From Acidobacteriota bacterium (GTDB lineage: Bacteria > Acidobacteriota > UBA6911), in assembly GCA_035506515.1 (NCBI GenBank), contig DATJPG010000042.1:11235-75234 (forward strand): DNA of 64,000 bases, given 5' to 3'. The position numbers and the translations under genes are program-made. This document shows positions 9,125 to 35,737 of the stretch, one piece after another (position 1 is the first letter of the stretch; each line of letters starts with the position of its first letter). Under the pieces are notes generated by a model that saw only the letters and a list, made by a program, of their open reading frames with translations, ran no database searches and was not told where the DNA came from.

Positions 9125-10480
9125 ATGAACCAACTCCAGCCGGTGATATGGACGAAGGGCACGCTTCTCGGTCCTCAACATCTCCAGACGCAAGACCGGT
9201 TTATCGAGAGCTCACTCCAATTTCGGGTACAGTCCCTGATATCGAATCCGTGGGGTTTTTTGAAGCTGCAGGTGAAGCAGGAAGCGCTTGCGGCAGGGGA
9301 ATTTGCCCTTTCGGAAGCATCGGGAATCTTTCCTGACGGGCTCCTGTTCGATTTTCCGGCATCGGAACAGGCTCCTCCCTCGATCCCGTTAGGTGATGCT
9401 TTCGGGCCCGACCAGAATTCTGTGGATCTTTACCTGGCGATTCCCAACTACCGCCAAGCCGGCCTGAACGTTTCCATCGCTCAGCAAAAAGCGGATACGC
9501 GGTATTTGGCCGATGTGGTTTCGGTACGCGATGAAAACTCCGGGAAGGCAGAAAAGCCCGTGCAGGTGGCGCGCAAAAACTTCCGGTTCCTGACCGCAAG
9601 CGACTCGCGCCAGGAATGTTCGGCTATGTGCGTGGCCCGCGTCTGCAAGAGCGATGCCGGCGTTCTGCAGTTGGATCCGCAATACGTTCCCCCGTTGCTG
9701 GATTTTGCTGCGAGCGACTATCTATGCGCCATCGCCCGGCGCCTGGTCGAAATTCTGGCCGCCAAGAGCAGTATTCTCGCCGGAGTGCGGCGGCAGAAAA
9801 ATCTCAGCCTGGCGGATTTCGGAACCGCGGACATCGCACAGTTCTGGTTGCTGTACACGGTCAACAGCCACTTCCCCGAATTCAATCATCTGTTCGAGAC
9901 ACGCCACGGTCACCCGGAACGCCTGTATGCAGCCATGCTCTCTCTGGCTGGCTGCCTGACGACCTTTTCGCCCAAAGTCAGTCCGCGCGATCTGCCTGCC
10001 TACGTGCACGATGATCTCTCCGGCTGTTTTGGATCCCTGGATGAAACCGTGCGGACCCTTCTGGAGACGGTGGTCCCGAGCAACTTCGTCTCGCTTCCTC
10101 TCAAGCTGGTTCAGCCGTCGATTTACGCGACCGCACTGGCCGAGGACAAATATCTTTCGGGAACCCGCCTGTATCTCGCCGTCTCCGCGGACATGAACCA
10201 GGCAGACCTGATCTCGAAGGTGCCCTACCTGGTGAAGGTATGCTCGGGGAACCACATCGAACACCTCGTGCGCCAGGCCTTGCCCGGTGCAGCGTTGACG
10301 CACGTGGCGAAGCCGCCCGGCGCCATCCCGGTAAAGCTGAATCATCAATATTTCAGCATCAATCAATCCGGGGTAGCCTGGGAAGCGGTTGTCAGAGCGC
10401 GGAATCTTGCGGTTTATGTTCCCGGGGATTTTCCCTCTCCCCAGCTGGAGCTCATCGTTTTATTGCCTGAGGCGGTTTGA
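9125..10480 (+). CDS. tssK: T6SS baseplate protein TssK (ImpJ/VasE), copy 1
   Basis: 451 aa. The N-terminus VIWTKGTLLGPQHLQTQDRF is a TssK hallmark. It is divergent from the tssB operon across an AT-rich 440-bp intergenic region. Confidence 0.88.
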   Translation: MNQLQPVIWTKGTLLGPQHLQTQDRFIESSLQFRVQSLISNPWGFLKLQVKQEALAAGEFALSEASGIFPDGLLFDFPASEQAPPSIPLGDAFGPDQNSVDLYLAIPNYRQAGLNVSIAQQKADTRYLADVVSVRDENSGKAEKPVQVARKNFRFLTASDSRQECSAMCVARVCKSDAGVLQLDPQYVPPLLDFAASDYLCAIARRLVEILAAKSSILAGVRRQKNLSLADFGTADIAQFWLLYTVNSHFPEFNHLFETRHGHPERLYAAMLSLAGCLTTFSPKVSPRDLPAYVHDDLSGCFGSLDETVRTLLETVVPSNFVSLPLKLVQPSIYATALAEDKYLSGTRLYLAVSADMNQADLISKVPYLVKVCSGNHIEHLVRQALPGAALTHVAKPPGAIPVKLNHQYFSINQSGVAWEAVVRARNLAVYVPGDFPSPQLELIVLLPEAV

Positions 10481-11981
10481 ACCGCTCAATTTCAATAAAG
10501 CCCCCGGACACCATCGACGCAGCGGCGCGTGCGAATTCGCCCGGCGGCGTGGCTCCCGGCAGGACATCATTCCGAATTAGCGTCGTCAACGCTTCACGCC
10601 CTGTGATTTTTCCATCGCATAAGGAAATCAGATGCGCCATCCAGGGCTGAATATTGCATTCCATATTAAAAGGGTATTGTGTCTGCAGCTTGTAGGATGA
10701 AGGATTCCAGCAGCCCTTTTCCAGACGATGCATCACAAGAAACTCCGTCTGCGGCGAGGCGTGCAAGGGAGAATCCAGGATAATCCGCTCCAGGTCGTCG
10801 CTGCACGATACGGATTCCCATTTCAATAGCCACTCCCATGGAGATCGCGAGGCGGAAGGAGAGGCTTGGCGCCGGACCGTGAAGATCCTGTGCGTTCCTG
10901 ATCTCTTCTGGATACAGATGAAACCATAGACAAGGGCGGTGATTCCCAGGTTATTAAACAACTGGCGCCACAGCTCGGATTCTTCTCGAGAGCGCATCGT
11001 TTCCCTGTTCTGGCGCTGTGCAAACTCCTGAGGTTCATACTCCCGGCGGGACAGGAACGCGATATCGAAATCCTTCTCTCTGGCGCCGAGCCAATCCCGG
11101 ACACGGTGTTCAAACGATCGTTCTCTACGATCGGTTCCCATCGTGAGCGCCAGGAATCTGCCTCCCTCCTTCAGATGATCGGGCAGCCCTGCCACGATCC
11201 GGCGGGTTATTTCTTCTCCGTCGCTTCCGCCGCTGTAGAAAATCCACTTAGGCTGGAGAGTCGGAACATAGGGCGGGTGGGCGGAGATGAAATCGAATCG
11301 GCAGTTTTCAAATCCTTGATACAGGTCGCTCGTCACAACCTTCACGTTGGAAATGCCATTCAGTTGCCGGTTAAATTCCGCAAATTGGGTGGAGCGGTCT
11401 GCGATGTCGCCAGACCACGCGTGCTGCGCGCTCCCTTTGGCGGCAAGCAAAGCCGCGATCCCCGTGCCCCCGCAAAGGTCGAGAAATTCTCCGCGCGGCT
11501 GTTCGGGCAAGTGGCGGAGGAACAGGCGGGTGTTGGGAAGAAAAGCCGGAAACACGATATCTTCCGCCACCGGCATCGAGGTGCCGTCGTATGTATTCCA
11601 CCGGTCGGAGGCGATGTACAGATCGCCCACAGGATACAGGGCGATGGTGGCATGGTATGCATCAGAGTCGGCGTCCCATCGAAGCAATCCCATACCCTCA
11701 AGAACCGCAATCATTCCGGCATCGAAGAATTCCCGCAGGGTATTCGAATGAACGATTTCGCCTGCCAGAAAAAGGGTTGTAAGAGCATCGGCTGCAGATT
11801 CACAGGCCGGCAGCGGAGGGCGCTGCTTCCGGTCTATCTCGAAGTCTTCGGCGTGTTCGAGGCGAAATCGTCTGCACAAAAACTCGTCGCTGTAATCCAT
11901 CGCTCGCAGAAAATCCCGCAATTCGCAGAACTGCCCCGTCTTCCCTAAAGCTCCTGCGTCGATGACAGAAGGGTACATCAC
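10452..11981 (-). CDS. SAM-dependent amino-methyltransferase, HemK/PrmC-like (LDLCGGTGIAAL motif I; DFISAHPPY motif IV) with an N-terminal extra domain of about 150 aa
   Basis: 509 aa. Motif I and an (N/D/H)PPY-type motif IV are spaced as in protein-glutamine and N6-adenine methyltransferases. It is 6 nt downstream of the repeat-protein gene (coupled). Its 3' end overlaps the tssK copy-1 3' end convergently. Confidence 0.7.
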   Translation of the reverse strand: MMYPSVIDAGALGKTGQFCELRDFLRAMDYSDEFLCRRFRLEHAEDFEIDRKQRPPLPACESAADALTTLFLAGEIVHSNTLREFFDAGMIAVLEGMGLLRWDADSDAYHATIALYPVGDLYIASDRWNTYDGTSMPVAEDIVFPAFLPNTRLFLRHLPEQPRGEFLDLCGGTGIAALLAAKGSAQHAWSGDIADRSTQFAEFNRQLNGISNVKVVTSDLYQGFENCRFDFISAHPPYVPTLQPKWIFYSGGSDGEEITRRIVAGLPDHLKEGGRFLALTMGTDRRERSFEHRVRDWLGAREKDFDIAFLSRREYEPQEFAQRQNRETMRSREESELWRQLFNNLGITALVYGFICIQKRSGTHRIFTVRRQASPSASRSPWEWLLKWESVSCSDDLERIILDSPLHASPQTEFLVMHRLEKGCWNPSSYKLQTQYPFNMECNIQPWMAHLISLCDGKITGREALTTLIRNDVLPGATPPGEFARAAASMVSGGFIEIERFKPPQAIKR

Positions 11982-11987
11982 TCTTCC

Positions 11988-13424
11988 TCACTTCCTCGCT
12001 GTAACCACGATAATGGCGATCACGGCCAGAAGAACCAGGATGACGATGATCAGCACTGGAATCATTTTCGAAGGTTGTTTCGCGGGTACGGGCGTTTCCT
12101 GCATTCGGGTCGGGGCCGGAACCGGCTCTGTTGCCAGTTCCTGCGGGAGCGACTGAGCGCTGAACATGCGCGTGTATTCGCCGGGAGCGCTTGCTGCCGG
12201 CGAAGCCGGGCTTGATTCTGCCAGCGGCGCTACGGGGCCCAGCGGAGGAATTTCAGCCGATGAATCGCCGAAGATCTTCGTAAATTCGCCGGCCGCCGGT
12301 GCAAAGGACTGAGGTGGCTTGGATGCGTGGATAGTTTCGCTCTGCTTGGGTGCAGATGCGGAAGATGGCTGGCCGAAGATTCCGGTAAAGGAAGTGGGCG
12401 GAACTGTCGCCCGGTCACCGCTGCCGAAGACGCGCGCGAATTCTCCCTGAGATTCAGGCTTTTGAGGCATAGGCGCCGGTGTAGGAGCCGGAGAGGATGC
12501 CGCGCTGAAAAATCGCGTGAACTCTCCCGGTCCTGATTGCGCCTGCTTAGGCGGCACAGGCGGCGTTGAAGCTTTCGACCCCTGGGGCACAGATTCCCCT
12601 ATGGGAGCGGCGGCCGCCTCAAACACTTGCGTGAATGATCCCGGCGCAGACGGGGCTGGGGTCGGGGCCGGTTGAGGCGTCGGAGGTTTTAATGCTCCGG
12701 GCGCAGGTTCGCCGATTGGAGCGGCGGCAGCCTGGAACATTTGGGTGAAGGATCCCGGCGCAGATGGAGCCGGGGCCGGGGCCGGCTGAGGCGTCGGAGG
12801 CTTTGATGCTTCGGGCGCAGGTTCGCCGATTGGAGCGGGGGCAGCCTGGAACATTTGAGTAAACGATCCCGGCCTAGATTCAACCGGGGGCGGTGCAGGA
12901 GCGATTGGCAATTCGGCCGCAGGCTCACCGATCGGGGCCGCAGGAGCTTGAAACATTTGCGTAAAAGAACCGGCCGCGCTGTGCGCGGGTGTTTGTTCCT
13001 CGGCATGCATGTCCACAGCACCGGATTCCCTCGATACCTTCGGGGATCCTGCCGGCGCGGATTTGAGTTCGGCGGGAACGTGCCACACGCCGGCTTTCGT
13101 AAACTCCCCCGGTTTGTGAGCCGGCGCTTCCGACGCCGCGGCATGGAATCGCGACAGGCGGGTTTTGAGTTCCGCAAGATTGCCGACCGGTTCTGTCACA
13201 ACATAGATTGTTCCGCGATTATCGCCGGTATCAATCAGTTCCGGAAACTGCGCTCGGTCGACTTCCCGCAGCTTGGCGAGAAAATCTTGCTGAGCGTGGG
13301 CTTGCTCACCCACGAAGAGAAACACGGTGACTTTTTTCCCGGTTGCAATTTCCTTGGCGACGAATGTCTTGGCGCCGTCCTCCCCGGCAAGCTCGAGAAG
13401 CTGATATCTTTCGTCGAAACTCAT
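11988..13424 (-). CDS. Tail-anchored membrane protein with a degenerate kinase N-lobe-like N-terminal domain, about 9 Pro/Ala-rich repeats (GSFTQMFQ / GEFTxxF) and a C-terminal TM helix
   Basis: The start is taken at the Met with a GGAG RBS; the ORF track extends to 13475. The N-terminus YQLLELAGEDGAKTFVAKEIATGKKVTV aligns by eye to the kinase glycine-loop/VAIK region of the nearby STK, but the catalytic Lys is missing. Residues about 120-450 are low-complexity repeats. The C-terminus MIPVLIIVILVLLAVIAIIVVTARK is a single TM span. Confidence 0.6.
   Translation of the reverse strand: MSFDERYQLLELAGEDGAKTFVAKEIATGKKVTVFLFVGEQAHAQQDFLAKLREVDRAQFPELIDTGDNRGTIYVVTEPVGNLAELKTRLSRFHAAASEAPAHKPGEFTKAGVWHVPAELKSAPAGSPKVSRESGAVDMHAEEQTPAHSAAGSFTQMFQAPAAPIGEPAAELPIAPAPPPVESRPGSFTQMFQAAPAPIGEPAPEASKPPTPQPAPAPAPSAPGSFTQMFQAAAAPIGEPAPGALKPPTPQPAPTPAPSAPGSFTQVFEAAAAPIGESVPQGSKASTPPVPPKQAQSGPGEFTRFFSAASSPAPTPAPMPQKPESQGEFARVFGSGDRATVPPTSFTGIFGQPSSASAPKQSETIHASKPPQSFAPAAGEFTKIFGDSSAEIPPLGPVAPLAESSPASPAASAPGEYTRMFSAQSLPQELATEPVPAPTRMQETPVPAKQPSKMIPVLIIVILVLLAVIAIIVVTARK
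12125..13115. repeat. Intragenic tandem repeat array of about 114-bp period (about 9 units; the central units are near-identical)
   Basis: Near-identical DNA units are visible, for example around 12640-12760 versus 12755-12875, each encoding GSFTQMFQAAAAPIGEPAP...PTPQPAP. Confidence 0.75.
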
Positions 13425-13622
13425 AGTTTTGGCTCCGTTTTGCCTCATCATGTCACATCGGCAATTGCCGATCAATAAGAGGAGGCTTTTAGAGAATAGA
13501 ACCGTGCCTAGTGCGTGTATAATAGACTGGCATCCCGCGGGCGCTCTGGAGTAATCTCAATAGCGCACCAGGGAAAATTTTTACGACCGCGGTTTCGTCA
13601 CCATACCGAGCGGAAAAAGATC

Positions 13623-14975
13623 ATGAAGCACCTGTCGAGAGTTGTATGGTCCGAAGGCATGTACCTGGCTCCGCATCATTTTCAGGTGCAGAGCCGGTAT
13701 TTCGAAGATTCCATTCAATTCGCCGCTTCGGCGCTTTGTTTTGCCCCGTACGGATTTGTCGGCTTCGGATTGGATGTCGAGGCTCTGCGCAACGGTACGC
13801 TGTCCCTTCTGCATGCTCGCGGAATTCTTCCCGACGGGCTGTCGTTTCAAATGCCCGACTGCGATGCCCTGCCGGCGGCGCGAAACATCGCCGATCTGTT
13901 TCCCCCGACGCGAGACAAAGTCACGGTGCTGCTTGCAATTCCCGAGCACAAATGGAATGGGGTCAATTGCGCGCAGTCCGCAGACGATAGCGGCTGGGTG
14001 CGTTACAGCGCCGAGTCTCAAACGATACCGGACGAAACCACGGGCCGCGACGAAAAGCCGGTTCCACTGGGCCGGAAAAATTTTTCTCTGCTGCTCGACA
14101 CCGAAGCGCAGGAAGGCATTCTGGCGTTGCCGGTGGCCGTTATCATGCGGGATGGGACGGGGCATTTCATTTTCGATCCCGATTTCATACCGCCTCTGAC
14201 GAGCATCGCTGCAAGCGATCGTCTGATGAGCGTCCTCAAGCGCCTCATTGAAATCCTGGATGACAAGAGCGCGAGCCTTTCCAAAGGCAGCGCGGCGGCG
14301 GCGCGCACCTGGGCCGAGTATTCCACGCGCGATGTCGCACAGTTCTGGCTGCTGCACACGGTCAATTCCGCCCTTGCGCCGTTGCGCGATATGTATGCGG
14401 GACGTCACGTGCACCCGGAGCAACTGTTCGTTCAGATGCTTCGCCTTGCCGGCGCGCTGTGCACCTTCTCGATCGATTCGCACCCGCGCGATCTGCCGCT
14501 CTACAATCACAGCAACCTGGCCGGATGCTTCGGCACGCTGGATCAGCACATCCGCACAAACCTGGAGACGGTTGTGCCGACCAACGTGATCTCGGTACCG
14601 CTGCAGAAATCCGCCGATTATTTCTATGAAGGTCCGATCACGGATCAACGGTGTCTCGATCGCGCGCGCTGGATTCTGGAAATCCGCAGCTCCACCGGCG
14701 AGGTGGAGATCATTGCCAAAGCGCCCCAGTTGGTGAAAATCTGCTCCAAGCTATTTGTCCCTAAACTGGTCGAAAGAGCCTTGCCCGGCATGGGCCTGAC
14801 CCATTTGCCCACTCCGCCTACCGCCATATCCGCACGGGTGGATGCCCAATACTTCAGCATCAATCGTGCCGGCCCATGCTGGGAGCACATTGTGCAAACA
14901 CGGCAGGTGGGAATCTACGTCCCCGGGGAGTTGCCGAATCCCGAACTTGAGCTGTTGATCATCCTCGAATCCTGA
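13623..14975 (+). CDS. tssK: T6SS baseplate protein TssK (ImpJ/VasE), copy 2
   Basis: From the internal Met, MKHLSRVVWSEGMYLAPHHFQVQSRYFED is the TssK N-terminal signature; the ORF track starts at 13515. It is about 40% identical by eye to copy 1. It is followed at 16 nt by tssL. Confidence 0.85.
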   Translation: MKHLSRVVWSEGMYLAPHHFQVQSRYFEDSIQFAASALCFAPYGFVGFGLDVEALRNGTLSLLHARGILPDGLSFQMPDCDALPAARNIADLFPPTRDKVTVLLAIPEHKWNGVNCAQSADDSGWVRYSAESQTIPDETTGRDEKPVPLGRKNFSLLLDTEAQEGILALPVAVIMRDGTGHFIFDPDFIPPLTSIAASDRLMSVLKRLIEILDDKSASLSKGSAAAARTWAEYSTRDVAQFWLLHTVNSALAPLRDMYAGRHVHPEQLFVQMLRLAGALCTFSIDSHPRDLPLYNHSNLAGCFGTLDQHIRTNLETVVPTNVISVPLQKSADYFYEGPITDQRCLDRARWILEIRSSTGEVEIIAKAPQLVKICSKLFVPKLVERALPGMGLTHLPTPPTAISARVDAQYFSINRAGPCWEHIVQTRQVGIYVPGELPNPELELLIILES

Positions 14976-19243: not shown

Positions 19244-20710
19244 ATGAATTCTGTTTCCCTGAATGCTATGGATATTCGAATGCCTGATTCCTATGACGAA
19301 GTTCGGTATCCAAGCCTTCCTTTAAAACAGAGCCATCCTGCGTTCATCGCGGCGCTGTCCACAATTGCCGGCCTGGAGCTCCCTCCGGTAGAACGGTGGA
19401 GAGTGCTGGAGATCGCCTGCGGCAACGGATCCAATATTATTCCACTGGCATTCGACTATCCCGAAGGACATTTTGTCGGCGTCGATCGAGCTTTAAATCC
19501 GATCCGGGCAGGTCGGGCTCTGGCCGACAAATTGAAGCTCTCCAATATAGAATTGCTGAACGCAGATTTGCTTCAATGGCAGCCGGAGGGCGAATTCGAT
19601 TACGTCATCGCCCACGGCATCTTCTCCTGGGTTCCTGCGGAAGGCCGGGAAAAAATACTCGAGATCTGCGGCCGCGCCCTGAAGCCATCGGGGGTCGCAT
19701 TTATCAGCTATAACGCACTTCCCGGCTGCCATTTCCGCAGGTTTGCCTGGGATTTCCTCCGCTTCCACGTGCGGCGCATCCCGGACCCTGCGGCACGCAT
19801 GAAAGGAGCTCGAGATCTTGCCGGAATGATCGTGAACGCGCCGGCCGGCGAAGACCCCCTTCCGCTTGCCATTCGCAAGGAAATGACTACTATCCTCAAT
19901 AAGGATGAAACGGTTCTGTATCACGACGATCTTTCCGAAATAAACGAGCCATTCTACCTGATGGATTTCGTATCGCAGGCCGGGAGCCATGGACTTCAAT
20001 ACCTGGGTGATGCGGATCCGCAGCGCGACAATGTTCAAGACCTTCCGCTGCGGGCTGAGGACTGGATAGAGTCGCGGCAATACGGTGATTTTCTGGCCAG
20101 AAGGCGATTTCGCGAAACTCTGCTCTGCAGGAGTGAAATCGTTTTGGACCGAAAGCTCTCGCTGGATCGCTTTAGAAATTTGTTTGCTGAGTCGCGGGTA
20201 TCGCCGGGTGAGGTGCAAAAGGACGGGCAGCAGCAGTTTAACATCCCCAAGTCGGGTAATCTGACGACCAATCACCCCTTGGCCAAGAATCTGTTGTGCC
20301 GATTGGCATCGTTGTGGCCGGGATCAATGCGACTCTCCGAATTCCCTCTGGACGACTATCCGGAGGATGCAGTTGCAGGATTGTTTATGCAGCTTGTTCA
20401 GGCTGGGGCCCTCGATGTAAGAAGCCATCCGCCAAAAATCCCTGCAGAAATCGGAGATCGCCCGAAGGCGAGCGCCTTGGCCCAGGCGCAGATCGGTGAA
20501 GGGTACAGCACCGTGACCAATCAGCGGCACAGCAATATCGCGATCACCGACGACACGAGCCGCAGGATTCTTACACTCCTCGACGGAACCCGGAACAGGC
20601 AGGAGCTCGCGGGCGAACTGACGGCCGGCGGAATGGATCCGCAAACGATCCATAGCGCGATCGAGGGCGCTCTTGCAAGCCTGCATCACGTGAGCCTGCT
20701 GATTGGATGA
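19244..20710 (+). CDS. Class I SAM-dependent methyltransferase with a long C-terminal extension (resembles the 'methyltransferase regulatory domain' type)
   Basis: 488 aa. VLEIACGNGSN is a GxGxG SAM-binding motif, and an acidic DYVIAHGIFSW motif II-like segment follows. It is 48 nt after tssM, same strand. Confidence 0.65.
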   Translation: MNSVSLNAMDIRMPDSYDEVRYPSLPLKQSHPAFIAALSTIAGLELPPVERWRVLEIACGNGSNIIPLAFDYPEGHFVGVDRALNPIRAGRALADKLKLSNIELLNADLLQWQPEGEFDYVIAHGIFSWVPAEGREKILEICGRALKPSGVAFISYNALPGCHFRRFAWDFLRFHVRRIPDPAARMKGARDLAGMIVNAPAGEDPLPLAIRKEMTTILNKDETVLYHDDLSEINEPFYLMDFVSQAGSHGLQYLGDADPQRDNVQDLPLRAEDWIESRQYGDFLARRRFRETLLCRSEIVLDRKLSLDRFRNLFAESRVSPGEVQKDGQQQFNIPKSGNLTTNHPLAKNLLCRLASLWPGSMRLSEFPLDDYPEDAVAGLFMQLVQAGALDVRSHPPKIPAEIGDRPKASALAQAQIGEGYSTVTNQRHSNIAITDDTSRRILTLLDGTRNRQELAGELTAGGMDPQTIHSAIEGALASLHHVSLLIG

Positions 20711-20847
20711 GATGAGCGATGGTCACCATAAGCCGAATTTATAAGAAGGAAGGTGATTTCTGCCGGCCCGGCTCTTATGATTTCTTTCAGGGTGATGACA
20801 CATGTCACGGAATAAGCCTATAATTGCAGCAAGATAGGAGGCCTCTT

Positions 20848-21816
20848 ATGCGCCGCTCCATTTTGACGATTTTCCTGTTATGCATATTGGTTCCATTGGC
20901 GAATGCCCAGACAAAACCGCGCGTGGCCGTCATGAATTTCGACTATGCGACCGTGCGCGACATGAGCTCTTCGATATTCGGCACGGACGTGGATATTGGA
21001 AAAGGCATCACGGATATGCTGGTTGACAAGCTGGTCAATGGCGGCGCCTTCTCCGTAATCGAGCGCAAGGCTCTGGACAGCATTATCGCGGAGCAGAATC
21101 TCTCGAACAGTGACCGTTTCGATAACAACTCCGCGGCAAAAATCGGGCGGCTGCTTGGAGTGGACGCGATCATTACCGGCAGCATCACGCAATTCGGCCG
21201 TGACGATAAAAACACGAATATAGGCGGCGGAGCGGTCGGTGGTATTTCGCGCCGCTTCGGCATCGGCGGGGTCGGCAAAAAAGAATCCAAGGCAGTCGTG
21301 GCAATCACGGCGCGCATTATCAATACGGACACAGCTGAAATTCTGGTGTCCACAACAGGAAATGGCGAATCCAAGCGGTCCGGTACGATGTTGCTTGGCG
21401 CTGGAGGCAGCGCCGAAACCGCTGCGGGCGGTGTCGTGGACATGAGAAGCAGCAACTTCGCCAACACAATTCTCGGAGAGGCGGTTGGGCAAGCCGTCAC
21501 CTCCGTCGCCACGCAGCTGCAAGATAAAGCCGGCCAGCTGCCCACGCGCGTCGTGAAAGTCGACGGCCTCGTGGCGGATGCGACGGGCGGCGAACTGGTG
21601 CTCAATGTCGGCAGCAAAGCGGGAATCAAAGTCGGCGATCACCTGAAAGTCGTACGCACCGGGCGCGAGATCCGCGACCCTTCTACCGGTAAGGTGATCC
21701 GGCGCACGGAGGAAGCGCTCGGTGAAGTGGTCATCACGGAGGTCGACGAACAGTCAGCAGTTGGCAAGTACAACGGGACCAATCCGGCAAAAGTAGGCGA
21801 CCGGGTACACAACTAG
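20848..21816 (+). CDS. CsgG/HfaB-family (curli-type secretion channel-like) exported protein
   Basis: GGAGG RBS. Signal peptide MRRSILTIFLLCILVPLANA. The segments VAVMNFDYAT...ERKALDSIIAEQNLS...GVDAIITGSIT resemble CsgG-family conserved blocks. The STK gene follows at 12 nt. Confidence 0.6.
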   Translation: MRRSILTIFLLCILVPLANAQTKPRVAVMNFDYATVRDMSSSIFGTDVDIGKGITDMLVDKLVNGGAFSVIERKALDSIIAEQNLSNSDRFDNNSAAKIGRLLGVDAIITGSITQFGRDDKNTNIGGGAVGGISRRFGIGGVGKKESKAVVAITARIINTDTAEILVSTTGNGESKRSGTMLLGAGGSAETAAGGVVDMRSSNFANTILGEAVGQAVTSVATQLQDKAGQLPTRVVKVDGLVADATGGELVLNVGSKAGIKVGDHLKVVRTGREIRDPSTGKVIRRTEEALGEVVITEVDEQSAVGKYNGTNPAKVGDRVHN

Positions 21817-21827
21817 GCGGGGGGCGG

Positions 21828-23456
21828 ATGAGCTACGAAATCGGTTCTCGCGTTGGCGATTACGAAATTCTTCAGATCCTTGGCGCGGGCGGCATGGGGC
21901 GAGTCTACAAAGTCCGCAACGTCCTGTCCGATCGTGTAGAAGCCATGAAAGTATTGCTTCCGGATCTCGAGGGCAATCCCGGGTTGGCCGACCGGTTCAT
22001 GCGCGAAATCAAAGTGCAGGCAAGTCTGGATCATCCGAACATCGCCGCGCTGCACACGGCGCTGCGCATCGAAAATCAACTGATGATGCTCATGGAATAT
22101 GTGGACGGAGTCACGCTGGACAAGATGATGGAAGCGGGTCCGGTCCCTATCGACAAGGCGGTGGACTACATCGCGCAAGTACTCTCGGCGCTGGCGTACG
22201 CGCACGCGCGCGGCGTCGTACACCGCGACCTGAAGCCGGCGAACATGATGATCATGCCCAACGGGGTGGTCAAACTGATGGACTTCGGAATCGCGAAGAT
22301 GACGGCAGACCGCAAGCTCACGCAAACGGGCAGCACCGTCGGATCGCTGTACTACATGTCTCCGGAGCAGATCAAAGGCGCCGTGGATCTCGACCCGCGA
22401 TCCGACTTGTATTCCCTCGGGGTTTCGCTCTATGAAGTTGTCACGGGCGCACGTCCCTTTCAGGGGGACAGCGAATATTCGATCATGGCGGCGCACTTGC
22501 AGAAGAACCCTCCTCCGCCGATCGAAATATCGCCCAACCTGCCGAACGGATTGAACGAAATAATTCTGCAGGCGCTCCAGAAAGAGCCGGCGAAGCGTTT
22601 CCAGACGGCCGATGCATTCCGGAACGCGCTGCTCTACGTGTGCAAGCAGCCGCTGTCCGCGGCTCCGGTGGCGGCCGCGGCCGTGCCTCCGCCAAAAGCC
22701 GTACAGCCGCAGCCGAATATTCCACCCCCGCCCCCACCGGCAGTGCAACCTGCATCCTCGCACAGGGGCCTATGGATTACCATAGGCGCCGTCATTGTTC
22801 TTGCCGTGATCGCGGTTGTGGCCATGCAAATGCCGATGTTCCACAAGACCGCGGCGGAGACCGCTTCCGCCCAGCCTTCGACGGCAGTTTCGGGCACTGC
22901 AACCCCGTTGCAGGAATCCAGCGCGACTGTTCAACCCCCCCCGACACAAGCTTCTGTCCCGTCCACGACTTCACAGGAGGACGTGGCCGCGCCTGCGCAA
23001 GTTGCATCCGCCCCCGAAGCTCAGTCTCCGCAGACAAAGCCGACCACAAAACCGGCATCCGCCCCGTCCAAAACGGCAAAGCAGATGCAGTCTCCTCTGG
23101 CATCTCAGGCGGTTTCAGGAACCCAGCCGCCGGCTCCGGCGAAATCTGGGGCTGCTCCGGCAACGCCTGTCGAGGATCCGGCAACGGCAGAGCAGCTGAA
23201 GGAAGTTAAAGAGCAGCTGAACCTTCTGAGCATACGCATGGATACGGTTAAAAGCAGCCTGGATTCGCTGCGCAAGCAGCAGGCTACTTCCGGTTTCGGA
23301 CTGCGCGCCGACATGGCGAGTTCCGCCCAGCGGATGGAGTATTATTACAGTCAGACGGACGCGGCTCTGAAAAACCGCGATGCGGCAGCGGCGAAGAAAA
23401 ACCTGGATCTCACGGAACGCGAAGTCACAAAACTGGAGAATTTCCTGGGGAAATAG
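21828..23456 (+). CDS. Transmembrane eukaryotic-like Ser/Thr protein kinase (PpkA-like architecture without a vWA domain)
   Basis: GAGGMGRVYKV, AMKVL, HRDLKPANMM, DFGIAK and SPE motifs are present. Then come a Pro-rich linker, the TM helix LWITIGAVIVLAVIAVVAM, and a Ser/Thr/Pro/Ala-rich exported region with a C-terminal coiled coil. Confidence 0.9.
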   Translation: MSYEIGSRVGDYEILQILGAGGMGRVYKVRNVLSDRVEAMKVLLPDLEGNPGLADRFMREIKVQASLDHPNIAALHTALRIENQLMMLMEYVDGVTLDKMMEAGPVPIDKAVDYIAQVLSALAYAHARGVVHRDLKPANMMIMPNGVVKLMDFGIAKMTADRKLTQTGSTVGSLYYMSPEQIKGAVDLDPRSDLYSLGVSLYEVVTGARPFQGDSEYSIMAAHLQKNPPPPIEISPNLPNGLNEIILQALQKEPAKRFQTADAFRNALLYVCKQPLSAAPVAAAAVPPPKAVQPQPNIPPPPPPAVQPASSHRGLWITIGAVIVLAVIAVVAMQMPMFHKTAAETASAQPSTAVSGTATPLQESSATVQPPPTQASVPSTTSQEDVAAPAQVASAPEAQSPQTKPTTKPASAPSKTAKQMQSPLASQAVSGTQPPAPAKSGAAPATPVEDPATAEQLKEVKEQLNLLSIRMDTVKSSLDSLRKQQATSGFGLRADMASSAQRMEYYYSQTDAALKNRDAAAAKKNLDLTEREVTKLENFLGK

Positions 23457-23863: not shown

Positions 23864-25072
23864 ATGTCTGGGCCCTTAGCAGGCGTGCGAGTAGTAGAAA
23901 TCACAATGTTTCAACAGGGACCGGTTGCCGGAACCAAACTGGGTGACATGGGGGCAGACGTCATCAAGGTTGAACCCAAAGAAGGCGATCCGGCGCGCGG
24001 TTTTATGCGTCTCATCGGCGCGACCGTGGGACTCAAGGGAAATAACTACTATTTTGAAAGCAACAACCGCAACAAGCGCAGCATTGCGATGGACCTCAAG
24101 TCAGCCGGCGGGAAGGAGATCTTCCTGAAACTGATTGATACCGCCGATATCTTTCTCACCAACATGAGCATCGATGCGCCCATCAAAATCGGAATCGGGC
24201 CTGACGATCTGATGAAGCGAAATCCGCGGCTCGTCTACGGGCACTCGTCCGGATGGGGAAGAAAGGGGCCTGGTGCCGGCGATCTTTCGTTTGATTACAC
24301 GGGCATTGCCCGCTCGGGTTTGATGATGTGTGCGGGCGAAAAAGGCAGCCCCCCGGCCCAAATGCTTCCCGGAATGGGCGACCAGATCGGTGGCCTTATG
24401 CTCGCTTGGGCTGTAACTGCAGCGCTGTATGCCCGCGAGAAGACGGGCCAGGGCCAACTGGTGGACACGTCGCTCATGGGCAGCATCATCGCCCTCACCG
24501 GCCTCATTCTCGATGCCCCCGCGATGTTGAACCAGGAATACCCAAGAGAACTCAGAGCAGAAGCCGGCAACCCCATGTACAACCACTACAGGTGCCGCGA
24601 CGACAAATGGATCGCCGTGGCTCACCTCCAGCCGGACCGCTATTGGCCAGCCTTCAGCAAGGCCATGGAACTCGGAGACTTGGAACATGATCCCAGGTTC
24701 AACAGCATGGAAGCCCGCGGAAAGAACAAGACGGAACTCATCCGTATGCTGGACGAAAAATTCGCATCCAAAACGAGAGACGAATGGCTGGATCAGCTGA
24801 ACAAAGCAGGCTGCATCTGCACACCCGTTCAGTCTCTCGCCGAAGTGACTCGGGATCCCCAGGCTCTTGCCAATAACTATATGATCGATGCGGATCACCC
24901 GGAATGGGGACGCGTTCGCCAGGTCGGCTTTCCCTGGGATTTCAACGGAACGCCGGCCGAATGGCGCAGACCGGCGCCCAAGCTGGGCGAACACACAGAA
25001 GAGATTTTACGGGAAATTGGTTACGCCAGCGAAGCCATTGCTCAACTGAAGGCGTCCGGAGCTATTCTCTAA
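23864..25072 (+). CDS. CoA-transferase family III (CaiB/BaiF/FldA-like), paralog 1
   Basis: VRVVEITMFQQGPVAGTKLGDMGADVIKVEPKEGDPAR is the family-III N-terminal signature. It has about 65% identity to the ORF at 34400. Confidence 0.85.
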   Translation: MSGPLAGVRVVEITMFQQGPVAGTKLGDMGADVIKVEPKEGDPARGFMRLIGATVGLKGNNYYFESNNRNKRSIAMDLKSAGGKEIFLKLIDTADIFLTNMSIDAPIKIGIGPDDLMKRNPRLVYGHSSGWGRKGPGAGDLSFDYTGIARSGLMMCAGEKGSPPAQMLPGMGDQIGGLMLAWAVTAALYAREKTGQGQLVDTSLMGSIIALTGLILDAPAMLNQEYPRELRAEAGNPMYNHYRCRDDKWIAVAHLQPDRYWPAFSKAMELGDLEHDPRFNSMEARGKNKTELIRMLDEKFASKTRDEWLDQLNKAGCICTPVQSLAEVTRDPQALANNYMIDADHPEWGRVRQVGFPWDFNGTPAEWRRPAPKLGEHTEEILREIGYASEAIAQLKASGAIL

Positions 25073-26351
25073 TCACAACCGGAATGATGGTTCCTCCGGA
25101 CGGCAGAATCGTCACATCGGCCTTGGGCGTGCTCTTATAAGCCATCTGAATGGCCTCGTCGAGAGTCGCAGCATACTCAAAATTCATAAGCTGCACCTGC
25201 TCTCTCGTCAACCCCTCCGTCATGTGAATGACTTTGTACTGCTCGGACACTTCCTTGAAGGGAACTCCGAGCATAAAGAAGGATATGCCGAAGGGTTTGA
25301 TGCTGTCCGGAATATTTCCTTCAAGCAGTCTGCGGTGATATTCATTCGCGCTTTTCGCAGCGGCCATCTGCTCGATCAGCGACATTAGCGGTCCGGCCTG
25401 CTTTTCGGCGGCGGCCCAGATGATCGTTCCTCCCGTTTTGACAGCAAGCCTTGCGTTCAACAAAGATTTGGTCGCCTGGACGCCGATTTCCAGCGGGGCG
25501 GCGGATGTGATAACGATGTCCGCCTGTTTGGGCAGCGCCACCTTATATATAGAGGATGCGAATTCTGCCGCCTGCCGGTGCTCTTCGACGGGATCCCCGG
25601 CGAATGCCCGAATGACTCTATCTGTCTCGTTCAGCAGGAAATCAACCTTAAATGCCAAGCCTGCCAATCGCGCAACCTCGACTGTTTCGTCATACCAGGC
25701 ATTTCCCGCAAGGGCGCTGAGCTGGCAGGTCCTGTTCCGGAGCCAGCTGTAGTGATGGTCACCGATGCTTCGGTAGGACGACACTCCGGGCATGATAATT
25801 TTGCATCCGCCGCTGTATCCCGCATAAGGGTGCGGCATGCACGTGCCGATGCCGATGACCAGGTCCGCCTCGGCGACGTATTTATTGATTTCGACAGCCG
25901 TTCCCCGGCTGGTCTTGCCGACGAAAACGTTGTCGGGCGATTGAGATTCGTGGATGTAGACGCGACCCGCGAGGCGCCGCAGTGCTTCCGGCCCTATCTT
26001 CTTGGCAATCTGCTCCTGGGAGGGCATCGGGTGTGATCCCCGGGCACAGATCGCGGTGACGCGGGCATCGGGTACTCCGGCTTTGTTGAGACGGTTCAGG
26101 ATCGGGGGGATTGCGAACTGCGCCGGAGTGGCCCGCTGCATGTCGTCAAACAGCACGGCGACCTTCATCCCCGGGCGGGCCAGCCGCTCCAGGGTTGGAG
26201 TTCCGATGGGATTATCGAGCGCCCTCTCCACTTCTTTTGCCGCGTCTTCGACCAGAGGCGCCTTCGCACAATCCTGCGAGCTGAGCACATTCCATCCAGA
26301 TGGCAGGGAAAAATCGATCCTGCCGCCGCTGTAATTCAGGTAATAGTCCAT
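25062..26351 (-). CDS. LarA-like (nickel-pincer cofactor-dependent) 2-hydroxyacid racemase family protein, paralog 1
   Basis: 429 aa with DUF2088/LarA-type N-terminal domain features, and is paralogous to the ORF at 32832-34118. Confidence 0.7.
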   Translation of the reverse strand: MDYYLNYSGGRIDFSLPSGWNVLSSQDCAKAPLVEDAAKEVERALDNPIGTPTLERLARPGMKVAVLFDDMQRATPAQFAIPPILNRLNKAGVPDARVTAICARGSHPMPSQEQIAKKIGPEALRRLAGRVYIHESQSPDNVFVGKTSRGTAVEINKYVAEADLVIGIGTCMPHPYAGYSGGCKIIMPGVSSYRSIGDHHYSWLRNRTCQLSALAGNAWYDETVEVARLAGLAFKVDFLLNETDRVIRAFAGDPVEEHRQAAEFASSIYKVALPKQADIVITSAAPLEIGVQATKSLLNARLAVKTGGTIIWAAAEKQAGPLMSLIEQMAAAKSANEYHRRLLEGNIPDSIKPFGISFFMLGVPFKEVSEQYKVIHMTEGLTREQVQLMNFEYAATLDEAIQMAYKSTPKADVTILPSGGTIIPVVIRE

Positions 26352-26796
26352 AAAACCCCGCCTTCCTTCATTCCGCTCAATTATATCCGGCGCGTGGCTT
26401 CCTTGCCAGCAGGATGCTTCTGTCCCCGAATATTTAAAAATCTATTGGTAGGATGGTAGAATCAGAAATATACTTGTCATATATATGCGGATTCGTTTCC
26501 TGAACTAAGGTAAGAAGCAGGCAAAATATTTGTGCCGGGAGTGTTCTAGCGGCTAAAACCATTTGCGAGTGATCCAATCTCCATGTTGGATGCAAAGCAG
26601 GTTCGTGCTGTTTATTTGGAGCAAAATCATAAATATCCAGGGCATAATCCCGCGACACAAAATTGTTTAAGGAAGTTAGTATTATTTCCGCAATTGTGCC
26701 CGCCCACCCAATTCATGCAGTATGAGCGTCCGACATGCAAACAGGTGCATGCGGAGGGTTGCGGTGCATCCATAGTACTGAGGCAAGGAGGGCTTT

Positions 26797-28302
26797 GTGC
26801 AAAACATACTGGTCACTAAAAGCAATTCCTGGATGATCACGCAAATCATCAACAATAAACACGAATGCGAAAAAGAGATGGCTGAAGCAATACTGCAAGC
26901 CTTCGACAACAGCAAAGACAAAGATGTCCTCGGCGTTCTGAGGGGAATCGTTGCCAATTCGATCGATGACATAAAAGATATTATCGCCGCAAAGGGCGAG
27001 GCAGCGTTCACCGCCGCCTACGGCAAGGATGCAAGCAATTACGGCTTTGTTTCAGGCAAAGGTTTGGCCAATTCCGAGAAGTTTCTGAGTTTTGTCGGCA
27101 ATACGTCTAATGTTTTCGAAAGCATGAATACCGATGAATGCGGTTGTATGATCCGGTTCTATGGAGAGGTGATAGAAGCCGGGAATAAAATAGGGGGCGC
27201 CGACGAGTCCAAGGCGATCAAAGCGAAGCTCAAAGCGCTCGAGGATCACAAAGCGAGCTACCAGCTATCCTCTGAGGCGAATAAACCCGAATGGAAAAAG
27301 TCATCACAGGAAACCGGTAAGGAAGTCCCCAAAAGCGATGCGGCACTGAGAAATCGCGTTTCGGCATCCCCGAAGCCGCTTAAATGGGAAAAGGCACCAA
27401 CGGAACATCCCTCCCAGGCGGATCAGGCGGCGATTGAGAAATTTGAAGCACGCCAGAAAGAGGTTCAGGCTTATCGTCTGAAACGATCGAAAGTCGAGAG
27501 GCAATTGGCCGCTGCCGGAGGCGGCATCGGCGTATGGGTGCAAGAGGATGAAGATCTGCTTGCCCGGATGAACAAGGTGTTTGGTCTCATTCACGGCGCC
27601 ACGATCTCAGGCACGACCACCGATACTATCTTTTTCCTCAACAGGATGACTCTCGTTGATAAATATATGGGCGTCCGATTGCCCGACGAGTTGGGACAGC
27701 CTACCCCTGATTGGCTCGAATCTTATTATGGAGGGTGGGATTGGAGCACCTACAAAAAAACACATATAAAAAAGGTGGTCGCTCCGCAGGGTCTCGACCC
27801 TTTATATTACTTGATACCAATCGGCACCATTGTCGGCAAAGGACATCACTCCGTCCTGGAAGTCGCCATCCCCCTCACGCAGAACAAGAAGATGAACTAC
27901 ATCATAGGCAAATATACCCGGCTGCTTCTGGATCGCGAGGGGCGGGAAAACAGCGACGCGGCGGATATCGTGAGCGTCCTGAAGAGGTATGAGAATGACG
28001 ACAGAAACAAGCGTGTGCTGATTTATTATACCGCTCAAAAAGAGATTGAGGGATATGTGCTCTTTGACAAGGCAGAGGCGATCTGGGATGACATTGCTTT
28101 GGCAAACCAGAACCTCATGAATAAATTTAAGAGTTTCGCCACTCATCCCACAAAAGCACAAGTTGCATCGCTTCATCCGGAGCTGAATAGACTGCTTCTC
28201 CAAAGTCCTGCGCCACAGAAGGTCACGACCGGGGCGGAGCAAGTGTTTGCGTCCAGGAGAGCAATGTTCGAACGCCCGGTTCCCAGGCCTCAGAGGCAGT
28301 AA
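26797..28302 (+). CDS. Hypothetical protein in a low-GC island (orphan)
   Basis: 501-aa ORF with a GTG start 5 nt after AGGAGG. The gene and its 450-bp upstream region are visibly AT-richer than the surrounding sequence. No recognisable motifs. Confidence 0.5.
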   Translation: MQNILVTKSNSWMITQIINNKHECEKEMAEAILQAFDNSKDKDVLGVLRGIVANSIDDIKDIIAAKGEAAFTAAYGKDASNYGFVSGKGLANSEKFLSFVGNTSNVFESMNTDECGCMIRFYGEVIEAGNKIGGADESKAIKAKLKALEDHKASYQLSSEANKPEWKKSSQETGKEVPKSDAALRNRVSASPKPLKWEKAPTEHPSQADQAAIEKFEARQKEVQAYRLKRSKVERQLAAAGGGIGVWVQEDEDLLARMNKVFGLIHGATISGTTTDTIFFLNRMTLVDKYMGVRLPDELGQPTPDWLESYYGGWDWSTYKKTHIKKVVAPQGLDPLYYLIPIGTIVGKGHHSVLEVAIPLTQNKKMNYIIGKYTRLLLDREGRENSDAADIVSVLKRYENDDRNKRVLIYYTAQKEIEGYVLFDKAEAIWDDIALANQNLMNKFKSFATHPTKAQVASLHPELNRLLLQSPAPQKVTTGAEQVFASRRAMFERPVPRPQRQ

Positions 28303-28476
28303 AGCCAGACGATTGCGCCCGGACAAGTTACTGTAAGGGGCCTTTTCTGCTGAATTGTAGATATGCGATCATATCGGGCAGCGCAGGGAATCATTTTTGC
28401 CCAATCCCTTTAGATGCAACCTATCCGCAGTAATGCCGCGGACAAACAGATCTCTCTGCCACTTTGACATTTTTGC

Positions 28477-28505
28477 TTGACAGTCCCACGCCGGCTCATT
28501 TAAGA
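28477..28505 (+). promoter_or_regulatory. Candidate sigma70-type promoter (TTGACA-N17-TTAAGA) upstream of the oxidoreductase/dehydratase operon
   Basis: A perfect -35 hexamer, a 17-bp spacer and a weak -10, located about 40 bp upstream of the 28544 start. Confidence 0.25.
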
Positions 28506-28543
28506 GTGCACGGCTGTCATCGAATTGATTGGGAGATGAGGGG

Positions 28544-29485
28544 ATGTCCAGGACGATTGGAATTATAGGCGCCGGACCCGTTGGAGGGATTTTGGCGGCA
28601 CACTTATCCTCCGCTGGAAACACCGTTATCCTGGTGGATGCCTGGAAGGAACACATCGAAAAGATCCGTGCCGACGGCCTGCACATTACGGGCCAGGCCG
28701 GGATTTCATCAAAGCTGACGCACCTTTTGACCTCGGTTGAAGCTCTGGGCGCGTTCGCCCCTGAATTTGTTTTCATCTGTACTAAGGCCTGTGATCTTGA
28801 TAATGTCCTAGAGGGAATGGGCGAATCGCTTCGGCGTTCGAAAGCTGTATTTATCTCATTCCAGAACGGCATAGATACCGAGCAGGCCGTGGCAGAACGG
28901 ATCGGTCGGCATCGTGTCCTGCGCGGCGTGGTCAGCTATGCTGGCGTTCTTGTCGGTCCCGGAGAGATTCGCCGGAGTTTCTTCACTCCGCCCAATTACC
29001 TGGGCTGGCTGGATGAACGCGGCGCGGAGCCCTGCAAGGAAGCAGCCGCTGTGCTGTCTGCCTCCGGACTCGCAACGGAAGCGACGAAGGATATCGGCAG
29101 ATACGTCTGGAGAAAGGCGATCCTGAACAGCTGCACCATGTCGATCGCCGCCATCACCGGCATGACCATTCAGGAGATGATCGAGTTCTCCCCGACGGCG
29201 CAGCTCGTTGAACTGCTGCTGCAGGAGTCGGTCGCAGTGGCCGCTGCCTTTGGCTATGACTATGGTCCGGGGTTTGTGGAGTCGGTGCGGGATTTTAACA
29301 ACCATGCCGGGCCGCATAAACCATCGATGCGTGTGGACATCGAGAACGGACGCAGGACGGAAAATCCGTTTCTTATCCGTCGCATTGCCGAATGCGCCGA
29401 GCAAAAGGGAGTGCCGGCACCGCTGCACAGAACGGTGGCAAATCTCATAGATGCGCTCGAAAAGAAAGCCCTCGAGCGCCGCTGA
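28544..29485 (+). CDS. Ketopantoate reductase (ApbA/PanE) family 2-dehydropantoate/2-oxoacid reductase
   Basis: N-terminal Rossmann IGIIGAGPVGG; family length of about 310 aa. The start is taken at the Met after a GAGG RBS; the ORF track starts at 28529. Confidence 0.75.
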   Translation: MSRTIGIIGAGPVGGILAAHLSSAGNTVILVDAWKEHIEKIRADGLHITGQAGISSKLTHLLTSVEALGAFAPEFVFICTKACDLDNVLEGMGESLRRSKAVFISFQNGIDTEQAVAERIGRHRVLRGVVSYAGVLVGPGEIRRSFFTPPNYLGWLDERGAEPCKEAAAVLSASGLATEATKDIGRYVWRKAILNSCTMSIAAITGMTIQEMIEFSPTAQLVELLLQESVAVAAAFGYDYGPGFVESVRDFNNHAGPHKPSMRVDIENGRRTENPFLIRRIAECAEQKGVPAPLHRTVANLIDALEKKALERR

Positions 29486-29568
29486 TTTCCGGGCGGACTG
29501 AAACCCGCCCCCACCAGTGAATTCGTAACAGGGCTGAACAAACTAACTTTGAATACAGGAGCCAGGAA

Positions 29569-31616: not shown

Positions 31617-31710
31617 ATCGGGGACGTCCCACTCGTTCATCTATTTTGCATAGCAATCCTCTGATTGGTGTGCCTTCCAAAATAGGTGAACGAGTGGGAC
31701 GTCCCCGATT
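31614..31710. terminator. 33-bp perfect inverted repeat between convergent genes (bidirectional terminator-like hairpin)
   Basis: aaatcggggacgtcccactcgttcatctatttt...aaaataggtgaacgagtgggacgtccccgattt, with T-runs on the flanks. It lies between the 3' ends of the activase (+) and ldh2 (-). Confidence 0.6.
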
Positions 31711-31727
31711 TCACCCGATTTCAAAAA

Positions 31728-32813: not shown

Positions 32814-32831
32814 AGTTCTCCTTGATTAGTT

Positions 32832-35711: not shown

Positions 35712-35737
35712 ATAAAAATTATAAAAGGAGAAATGAA

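Follow-up and report, generated by a model that had tools for sequence, protein, structure and literature searches.

A kinase N-lobe repeat protein and an HPPY methyltransferase as possible accessory factors of a type VI secretion lineage in Acidobacteriota and Gemmatimonadota

Type VI secretion system (T6SS) biology rests almost entirely on Proteobacteria and Bacteroidota. Control by threonine phosphorylation acts through PpkA-PppA-Fha1 in P. aeruginosa and through PpkA-TssL-phosphothreonine (pThr)-Fha in A. tumefaciens (PMC3953482). Among bacterial pseudokinases, EssB/YukC is a component of the type VIIb secretion system (T7SSb), and MviN dimerises via its N-lobe (PMC12599244). Among methyltransferases with related folds, GenN is the gentamicin 3''-N-methyltransferase and methylates an amine of the aminoglycoside, AerE iteratively methylates the side-chain amides of D-Asn in a peptide that is bound in extended form, and PrmC binds its protein substrate through an N-terminal domain (PMC9060474). 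Here we describe two genes in the T6SS locus of an Acidobacteriota bacterium (assembly GCA_035506515.1, contig DATJPG010000042.1). One encodes a membrane-anchored repeat protein with a kinase-like head domain and the other a methyltransferase with the motif HPPY. The window is the whole stretch of 64,000 nucleotides (nt) that was analysed, and positions are counted from its first letter. We read the two proteins as undescribed accessory or regulatory factors of the T6SS, possibly tied to the Ser/Thr kinases of the locus.

The locus resembles the threonine phosphorylation pathway in its receptor-type Hanks kinases. It differs in being without Fha/TagH, PppA and TagF, and its candidate substrate is a new protein that combines a pseudo-N-lobe with several Thr motifs. 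Like the Agrobacterium TssL (PMC3953482), the repeat protein is membrane-anchored and predicted to face the cytoplasm, with conserved Thr sites. EssB/YukC and MviN (Rv3910) have a complete bilobal fold, whereas only an N-lobe with αD (~96 residues) is found here; the long disordered motif array, the C-terminal tail anchor and the association with a T6SS instead of a T7SSb also set the repeat protein apart. The methyltransferase has a class I MTS-type core, with PPY in the same place, in common with the protein glutamine N5-methyltransferases PrmC/HemK, PrmB and HemK2/MTQ2. The PrmC family acts on protein substrates, but the substrate-amide Asn of its NPPY is His in the window enzyme. With GenN and with AerE/PoyE, the D-Asn N-methyltransferases of proteusins (peptides made by ribosomes and modified after translation), it shares only 18-19% identity. 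Its motif IV reads HPPY where AerE has NPPF, and its conserved C-terminal domain of 180 amino acids (aa) is missing from GenN and AerE, the target lengths being 306 for GenN and 373 for AerE. We found no T6SS module of such composition in the literature, in agreement with the original prediction, which was made from the DNA of the window. Methyltransferases, pseudokinases, Acidobacteria and Gemmatimonadota are all absent from a 2026 review of T6SS accessory factors (PMC13584744), and a 2025 review on the families of bacterial pseudokinases is silent on both the T6SS and N-lobe-only forms (PMC12599244). An early T6SS census included the Solibacter usitatus cluster and named no methyltransferase; for Candidatus Solibacter usitatus Ellin6076, the T6SS genes are given as Acid_0231-0239 (PMC4239648). 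The motif strings of the repeat protein were absent from the searchable literature, and what was found on T6SS, methyltransferase and Acidobacteria together were DNA-methylation papers only.

The two genes lie between two tssK paralogues in a complete T6SS locus, just as had been predicted. The repeat-protein gene (11988-13424, minus strand) encodes 478 aa from an ATG and starts with MSFDERYQLLEL. The methyltransferase gene (10452-11981, minus strand) encodes 509 aa from a GTG, and an ATG is found one codon downstream. Between the TGA stop of the former (11988-11990) and the start of the latter at 11981 is a gap of 6 nt, and in the junction tgaGGAAGAgtgatg a Shine-Dalgarno-like site, GAGGAAG, extends across the repeat-gene stop. 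Because of the short gap and this site, co-transcription and translational coupling of the two genes are plausible; a 1-nt overlap of the same genes in a relative locus (L001) points likewise. The flanking genes are tssK1 (9125-10480, plus strand; PF05936, E = 1.7e-136) and tssK2 (13620-14975, plus strand; PF05936, E = 1.2e-127), each a full-length baseplate TssK paralogue and the latter the first gene of tssK2-tssL-tssM. Their products align end to end from the tssK2 ATG at 13620, with 41% identity over 451 residues, and are thus old paralogues. The genes tssK1 and methyltransferase are convergent, and their 3' ends share 29 nt (10452-10480). Such convergent overlaps were also seen in distant loci (26 nt in L002 and L004; 14 nt in L015, L024 and L030). 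The repeat-protein gene was divergent from tssK2-tssL-tssM in all loci examined, including those of the most distant homologues, and the intergenic region at 13425-13619 would be a shared control region. No sigma-70-like promoter was found in this region, where a consensus scan did no better than on shuffled sequences.

We surveyed the distribution of the genes with the methyltransferase as the seed, taking one genome per species. This gave 80 loci from Acidobacteriota (Bryobacterales, Terriglobia, Acidoferrum) and Gemmatimonadota, onto which the window proteins were mapped. Many contigs are cut, and the counts are lower bounds. T6SS core genes were found within 10 kb of the methyltransferase in 63 of the 80 species, a context that contrasts with the biosynthetic clusters of GenN and AerE. 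Both tssK paralogues were present in 36 loci. The gene tssK1 was within 2.5 kb of the methyltransferase in 41 loci and directly adjoined it in 29, which makes it the commonest immediate neighbour; tssB adjoined it in 22. The repeat protein with its N-lobe was encoded in 30 of the 80 loci, and immediately upstream on the same strand in 14. Relatives with a 47-56% identical methyltransferase keep the order tssM-tssL-tssK2 / repeat protein, methyltransferase / tssK1 / tssB. The window arrangement (tssK2, repeat protein, methyltransferase, tssK1) is one of several. About ten loci of the L015 type have tssK2, methyltransferase and tssK1, with the repeat protein nowhere in the 20-kb locus. Typically in Gemmatimonadota, and also in L088 and L089, the order is tssK2, repeat protein, tssK1, methyltransferase (with a truncated tssC-like gene before it) and tssB. 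Other loci have the order tssB'-tssC'-PKMT-methyltransferase-tssB-tssC, PKMT being a protein-lysine-methyltransferase type, or have the methyltransferase on its own. One distant locus (L087, 15545-17359) has the repeat protein with tssK-tssL-tssM alone, and neither a second tssK nor a methyltransferase was found within 10 kb. A pair of genes for a PP2C phosphatase and a Ser/Thr kinase lies 4 kb off in that locus.

In the methyltransferase tree, T6SS linkage runs throughout, with lone paralogues interspersed. Judging from these neighbourhoods, both genes are ancestral accessory genes of an Acidobacteriota/Gemmatimonadota T6SS lineage, neither insertion nor cargo. The tight two-gene operon of the window is, by the same comparison, only one of several arrangements and a derived one; therefore, the repeat protein and the enzyme are not obligate partners. 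The two-gene module of the original prediction was not supported: only 14 of the 80 species have the two genes side by side, and each occurs without the other nearby. Four genes, tssK2, repeat protein, methyltransferase and tssK1, make up a neighbourhood of variable internal order.

The repeat protein matched no family of Pfam or NCBIfam. Its 119 homologues have a common plan, with a domain of about 100 residues from residue 1 onwards, a number of G-x-F-T-x-x-F motifs and, at the C-terminus, a hydrophobic tail. A profile of the head domain, built from 52 diverse N-terminal domains, was searched against the PDB and matched protein kinases almost exclusively, the best 38 matches all being kinases. 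MARK2 was the best of them (E = 1e-4), with family positions 6-98 aligned to MARK2 15-113, that is, from the N-lobe through the hinge and αD. In the AlphaFold2 model, built on the alignment of this family, the head (residues 1-96; 13137-13424, minus strand) comprised β1 (7-14), β2 (19-25), β3 (31-37), αC (40-54), β4 (63-69), β5 (72-77) and αD (83-96). The predicted local distance difference test score (pLDDT) stayed at 85-92 to about residue 90, beyond which the chain was disordered. The Gly loop is degenerate (GEDGAKT, not GxGxxG). At the Lys position of the β3 VAIK, the window protein has Phe (VTVFLF), and most homologues have V-H-L-F, with His as the consensus. The C-lobe with its HRD loop and DFG is absent, the fold stopping after αD at about residue 96, and no Pfam Pkinase match was obtained. 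The degenerate N-lobe, without the β3 Lys and a proper Gly loop, and the missing C-lobe rule out that the repeat protein works as a kinase. The profile and the predicted structure show the head to be a remnant of a protein-kinase N-lobe only, for which phosphotransfer catalysis is impossible. Thus, the earlier pseudokinase reading was right about the N-lobe and the lost catalytic Lys; it must be narrowed from a full domain to an N-lobe-only fragment. The head-domain family had 773 representatives (E<=1e-10) among 1.84e9 proteins, which were the representatives of 50%-identity clusters, and the domain was nearly always at the protein N-terminus. Between the head and the array is a linker, GEFTKAGVWHVP (13074-13109, minus strand), which is conserved in the family as F-T/S-K/R-A/V-G-x-W-x-V/I-P. 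Its residue P117 is at least 90% conserved, and it is predicted to be disordered.

The motif array, P-G-(E/S)-(F/Y)-T-(R/Q/K)-(M/L/I/F)-F, occupies a Pro/Ala-rich region (21% Pro, 18% Ala) at 12162-12971 on the minus strand. We counted seven strict G-x-[FY]-T-x-x-F copies, starting at residues 152, 186, 224, 262, 300, 379 and 415, and three looser ones, among them FARVF at 329 and FTGIF at 346. The earlier count of about nine units was a fair one. The motif occurred 743 times in the 119 homologues, so it is not a product of chance. Its logo runs P.73, G 1.00, E.67 or S.18, F.89 or Y.11, T.99, then R.54, Q.33 or K.07, then M.53 (or L/I/F), F.94 and Q.46 (or G/S), and the consensus is GEFTRMF. 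At the Thr position the ratio of Thr to Ser is 99:1, and 94% of the motifs have a nitrogen-bearing R, Q or K next to it. Among the T6SS proteins of the window, the motif was found in the repeat protein only. Three C-terminal motifs (GEFTRFF, GEFTKIF and GEYTRMF) are kept in position across the family, and none of them has a Gln. Four GSFTQ[MV]F units (residues 152-268) are spaced 34-38 residues apart, and the last three are underlain by a 114-nt DNA tandem repeat at 12585-12873 (Tandem Repeats Finder: 2.5 copies, 86% matches, score 417). This repeat indicates that the Gln-type units arose by a recent, lineage-specific expansion.

The single C-terminal transmembrane (TM) anchor that had been predicted was found at residues 455-476 (IPVLIIVILVLLAVIAIIVVTA; 11997-12062, minus strand), followed only by RK and the stop. 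Most homologues have a comparable hydrophobic tail, those of Gemmatimonadota included. The latter follow the same plan, usually with fewer motifs, and their last motif before the TM segment reads (E/D)(F/Y)TR(I/V/Q)x. As there is no N-terminal signal peptide, we infer that the bulk of the protein is cytoplasmic. These features together show a predicted tail-anchored protein, with 7-10 motif copies of invariant Thr on a disordered tether of ~340 residues.

In the methyltransferase, Pfam detected the MTS domain only (residues 151-278). The best NCBIfam models were PRK14968, PrmC, PrmB and HemK2, all far under their cut-offs (TIGR03534 PrmC, 54.6 bits against 199.1; PrmB, 44.5 against 229.7; HemK family, 41.5 against 115.5). 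A class I Rossmann core with the S-adenosylmethionine (SAM)-binding motif I is present, and together with a helical N-terminal part it makes up the two-subdomain fold of the GenN/AerE type. Structural alignments with GenN and AerE covered 293-333 residues, N-terminal subdomains included. The original prediction had called the enzyme PrmC/HemK-like. This stood as far as the MTS-type core and the best models go, but it was too coarse: GenN and AerE are the closest and PrmC is far. The enzyme grouped with the protein-type N-methyltransferase lineage and not with DNA or rRNA methyltransferases.

The two catalytic motifs singled out earlier are both there. Motif I, LDLCGGTGIAAL, is the SAM-binding glycine loop at residues 167-178 (11448-11483, minus strand), in which L167, G172 and G174 do not vary among 61 sequences. 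Motif IV, DFISAHPPY, spans residues 230-238 (11268-11294, minus strand) and aligns to the NPPF of AerE and the NPPY of PrmC, with His235 in the place of Asn. This substitution, also pointed out in the original prediction, proved to be invariant. Close homologues had H in 109/109, P in 108/109, P in 109/109 and Y in 109/109. HPPY was found in at least 80 of the 86 locus copies, and NPPY in two paralogues outside T6SS loci (L026 and L044). An alignment of the 61 full-length homologues contained 45 invariant positions, including G172, G174, D192, D219, H235, P237 and Y238. The N-terminal helical/β subdomain (residues 1-145; 11547-11981, minus strand) is DUF7059-like, although the match of the window protein to PF23186 is weak (E 0.041, 14.5 bits against a cut-off of 27); the homologue P0104 reached 27.6 bits. 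The C-terminal domain (residues 330-509; 10455-10994, minus strand) is α/β with a helix-rich end. It was modelled confidently (pLDDT 87-98), has W384, H418, W447, G494 and F495 invariant, and gave neither a Pfam match nor a PDB sequence match. By alignment and predicted structure, the SAM site is intact, the fold is that of the amine and amide N-methyltransferases GenN, AerE and PrmC, and the enzyme looks catalytically competent. By its motif-IV His, its weakly DUF7059-type subdomain and its conserved 180-residue C-terminal domain, it is a family of its own. The gene also occurs as a tandem duplicate (L014, 10001-12892; L039, 10001-12506; L054, 10001-13043; and the contig of P0118), and the second copy of L014 has HPPH. 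The remaining deviations from HPPY, such as an apparent GPPH motif in L077, were rejected as regex artefacts, the true motif of L077 being HPPY. An apparent TssC-methyltransferase fusion in the same locus was likewise an artefact, produced by GC-rich DNA that lacks stops over a long stretch, with the two matches in different frames.

A receptor-type Hanks Ser/Thr kinase is encoded at 21828-23456 on the plus strand (Pkinase, E 3.8e-54), with AMK, HRDLKPAN and DFG, a TM segment at residues ~315-335 and a periplasmic part of ~200 aa. A second one, also with catalytic motifs and a TM segment, lies outside the window after vgrG (L085, 16850-18484). The two kinases bracket the T6SS cluster, and both combine a kinase domain with a single TM segment and a periplasmic part of 170-200 aa. 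From the second kinase to the first, in the locus and in contigs with the same tssG, we found no genes for FHA (Fha/TagH), PP2C (PppA) or TagF proteins. It is possible that the 21828-23456 kinase is an upstream regulator. Among loci with at least 2.5 kb past tssM, five had both the N-lobe protein and a locus kinase, nine had neither, three had the N-lobe protein only and one the kinase only.

On the tssM-adjacent kinases of Bryobacterales-type loci, the N-lobe profile scored 25-34 bits, which equals or exceeds its score on the best PDB kinase (25.6 bits). This hints that the head domain was derived from that kinase family. The kinases scored were those of L002 (802-2484), L004, L010, L011, L014, L019, L027, L056 and L057, with the N-terminus KYELLEFLGGGMSHVYRARDTVIGRTVAVKVL. 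An FGE-sulfatase domain was recorded for the tssM-adjacent kinases of L002-L004. The two kinases of the window locus scored -0.7 and 7.6 bits, which ruled out that the head is a recent copy of either. Comparing the N-lobe alignment by profile with the single sequence of the window kinase gave no information (probability 0.5%).

We tentatively favour, with slightly less than even confidence, the reading that the two conserved accessory or regulatory T6SS factors are a kinase-linked adaptor and an N-methyltransferase of a T6SS protein. The constant co-location with tssK2-tssL-tssM suggests that the repeat protein would be a membrane-tethered multivalent adaptor at the interface of the membrane complex and the baseplate. 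Its N-lobe head may dock onto the receptor Ser/Thr kinases of the locus, and the motif Thr may be a phospho-acceptor or a binding determinant. Such a system would be an Fha-less variant of T6SS threonine-phosphorylation control and an analogue of the EssB/YukC scaffold. A kinase-linked adaptor is the most economical explanation of the two locus kinases, the absence of Fha, PppA and TagF, the predominance of Thr over Ser and the co-occurrence of N-lobe protein and kinase. The methyltransferase, in turn, would N-methylate a protein of its own T6SS. In loci with coupled genes, the array of motifs would be one candidate substrate, being extended and repetitive like the AerE peptide and having R, Q or K after Thr. 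A core component (TssK1 or the sheath) as the obligatory substrate is at least as likely, and in fact more likely than the array, given the loci with the enzyme and without the repeat protein and the steadier adjacency of the enzyme to tssK1 or tssB. A more elaborate version is a dual-modification switch on the membrane-tethered scaffold, by which the T6SS would be gated. Here the methyltransferase would iteratively N-methylate the R, Q or K after Thr and so modulate Thr phosphorylation by the receptor kinases of the locus and, through it, the multivalent recruitment of the TssK1/TssK2 baseplate to TssL-TssM. We consider such a switch improbable, if worth naming.

Several observations weigh against the kinase-linked adaptor and its T6SS methyltransferase. 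The locus has no pThr reader of the FHA type, the co-occurrence of kinase and N-lobe protein spans few independent lineages, and the N-lobe profile misses the locus's own two kinases. About 17 of the 80 methyltransferase homologues are outside any T6SS locus, and a characterised precedent for His at the motif-IV Asn was not found. In addition, large-scale data on bacterial Hanks kinases show no more than weak sequence motifs, in which hydrophobic residues are disfavoured (bioRxiv 10.1101/2022.02.17.480717), so the fit of the motif to a kinase consensus carries little weight. A preference of mycobacterial Hanks kinases for acidic residues before Thr and a large hydrophobic one at +3 would fit GEFTRMF; it was not used as evidence, as that paper reports weak motifs.

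The repeat protein might also be a structural scaffold without any phospho-signalling, an extra membrane-complex subunit like EssB/YukC. Its Thr would be conserved for binding only, and its motifs would dock TssK1, TssK2, TagJ or the C-terminal domain of the methyltransferase. The fixed place beside tssK2-tssL-tssM would suit such a subunit, as would the absence of FHA and PP2C genes from the locus, the dissimilarity of the head to the window's own kinases and the EssB/YukC precedent (PMC12599244). The lack of TssJ, with a CsgG-like lipoprotein present instead, also suggests an atypical membrane complex. However, receptor kinases recur in these loci, and the near-exclusive Thr, with an acidic residue two positions before it, is what a pThr-dependent motif would be expected to look like, given the general behaviour of pThr-specific readers. 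We regard the scaffold without signalling as rather unlikely, if a serious competitor of the kinase-linked adaptor.

The remaining explanations concern the enzyme. According to the original prediction, a PrmC-like N5-glutamine methyltransferase acts on the Gln of the partner's GSFTQMFQ repeats. The enzyme does belong to the PrmC/AerE lineage of amide N-methyltransferases and its gene would be translationally coupled to the repeat gene in the window. All four Q-type repeats have Gln after Thr, and three of the four have a second Gln; moreover, AerE shows that the same fold can methylate many amide side chains of an unstructured peptide. The Gln, however, is not conserved. In the family, the residue after Thr is R in 54%, Q in 33% and K in 7% of motifs, and Q follows the final Phe in 46%. 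The positionally conserved GEFTRFF, GEFTKIF and GEYTRMF have none, and the Q-type units arose recently by tandem expansion. An invariant His stands here for the Asn by which PrmC and AerE orient the amide, and the enzyme is kept without the repeat protein in L015-type loci, as is the repeat protein without a nearby enzyme in L087. We therefore think Gln methylation of the repeats very doubtful. It is also conceivable that the methyltransferase has RNA, a lipid or a small molecule as its substrate and no more than a loose link to the T6SS, or that the two genes are a mobile insertion or cargo of the effector/immunity kind. GenN, the best structural match, does methylate an aminoglycoside, and some homologues do lie outside T6SS loci. 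Against this, T6SS linkage holds in most species of the survey and in two phyla, with a fixed position among core genes, and no biosynthetic genes were found nearby. The GC content of the pair is about that of the flanks, except in the Pro/Ala-rich repeat region, no mobility genes were found near it, and distant relatives have the pair in their orthologous T6SS loci. The pair, which lies among baseplate genes and far from vgrG, has no context of a toxin, PAAR, VgrG or adaptor. We thus saw no sign of a secreted effector, "cargo" in the original prediction was a misnomer, and both the cargo and the mobile insertion were dropped on linkage, GC content and context. Taken as a whole, this group of explanations seems quite unlikely.

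Around the pair, the minus-strand T6SS genes of the window are tssG, tssF, tssE, tssA, tagJ, hcp, tssC and tssB. The order then runs through tssK1, the gene pair, tssK2, tssL, tssM, a PKMT-like methyltransferase and a CsgG-like lipoprotein to the Ser/Thr kinase. Beyond the window edge, contigs with the same tssG have clpV, vgrG, a HEAT-repeat protein and the second Ser/Thr kinase. TssJ was not found in the T6SS locus. The lipoprotein (20824-21816, plus strand; CsgG and FlgT_C/LpoB-like), which is kept in L001, L005, L008, L009, L013 and L078, may replace it in an atypical membrane complex. The PKMT-like gene (19244-20710, plus strand) is directly 3' of tssM and encodes a second, unrelated methyltransferase with Methyltransf_25, MethyTransf_Reg and a PKMT winged helix. 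A gene of this type adjoins the HPPY methyltransferase in L021, L022, L025, L035, L042, L070 and L079; the T6SS lineage thus often has two methyltransferases. Many Gemmatimonadota and some Acidobacteriota loci also encode an extra, divergent sheath-like TssB'/TssC' (27-33% identical to TssB/TssC), directly upstream of the HPPY methyltransferase, for example in L021 (6488-8059), L068 (8847-10157), L070, L080, L082 and L084. The TssC' match usually ends at about residue 371 of TssC (453 in L068), so that the C-terminal gp25-like domain is wholly or mostly missing from it.

Adjoining the T6SS is a metabolic cluster at 23864-37795. It encodes two LarA-like lactate-racemase homologues, two family III CoA-transferases, a 2-hydroxyglutaryl-CoA dehydratase D-component with a BcrAD/BadFG-type activator, an Ldh_2 dehydrogenase, a ketopantoate-reductase-like protein and an ADP-forming acyl-CoA synthetase. 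This gene set suggests 2-hydroxyacid metabolism. The cluster also contains a 501-aa open reading frame (26797-28302, plus strand) without a Pfam match.

The locus defines a widespread T6SS lineage of soil bacteria, with a duplicated TssK, no TssJ, no Fha and two accessory proteins without a described counterpart. The head domain alone, with its 773 representative clusters, is a widespread family, and its N-lobe-only form widens the range of bacterial pseudokinases. The invariant His for Asn in (N/D)PPY poses a testable question of methyltransferase chemistry. If the enzyme modifies a T6SS protein, protein methylation would join the post-translational controls of contractile injection systems. 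If the dual-modification switch were true, these would be the first dedicated T6SS protein methyltransferase and the first N-lobe-only pseudokinase adaptor.

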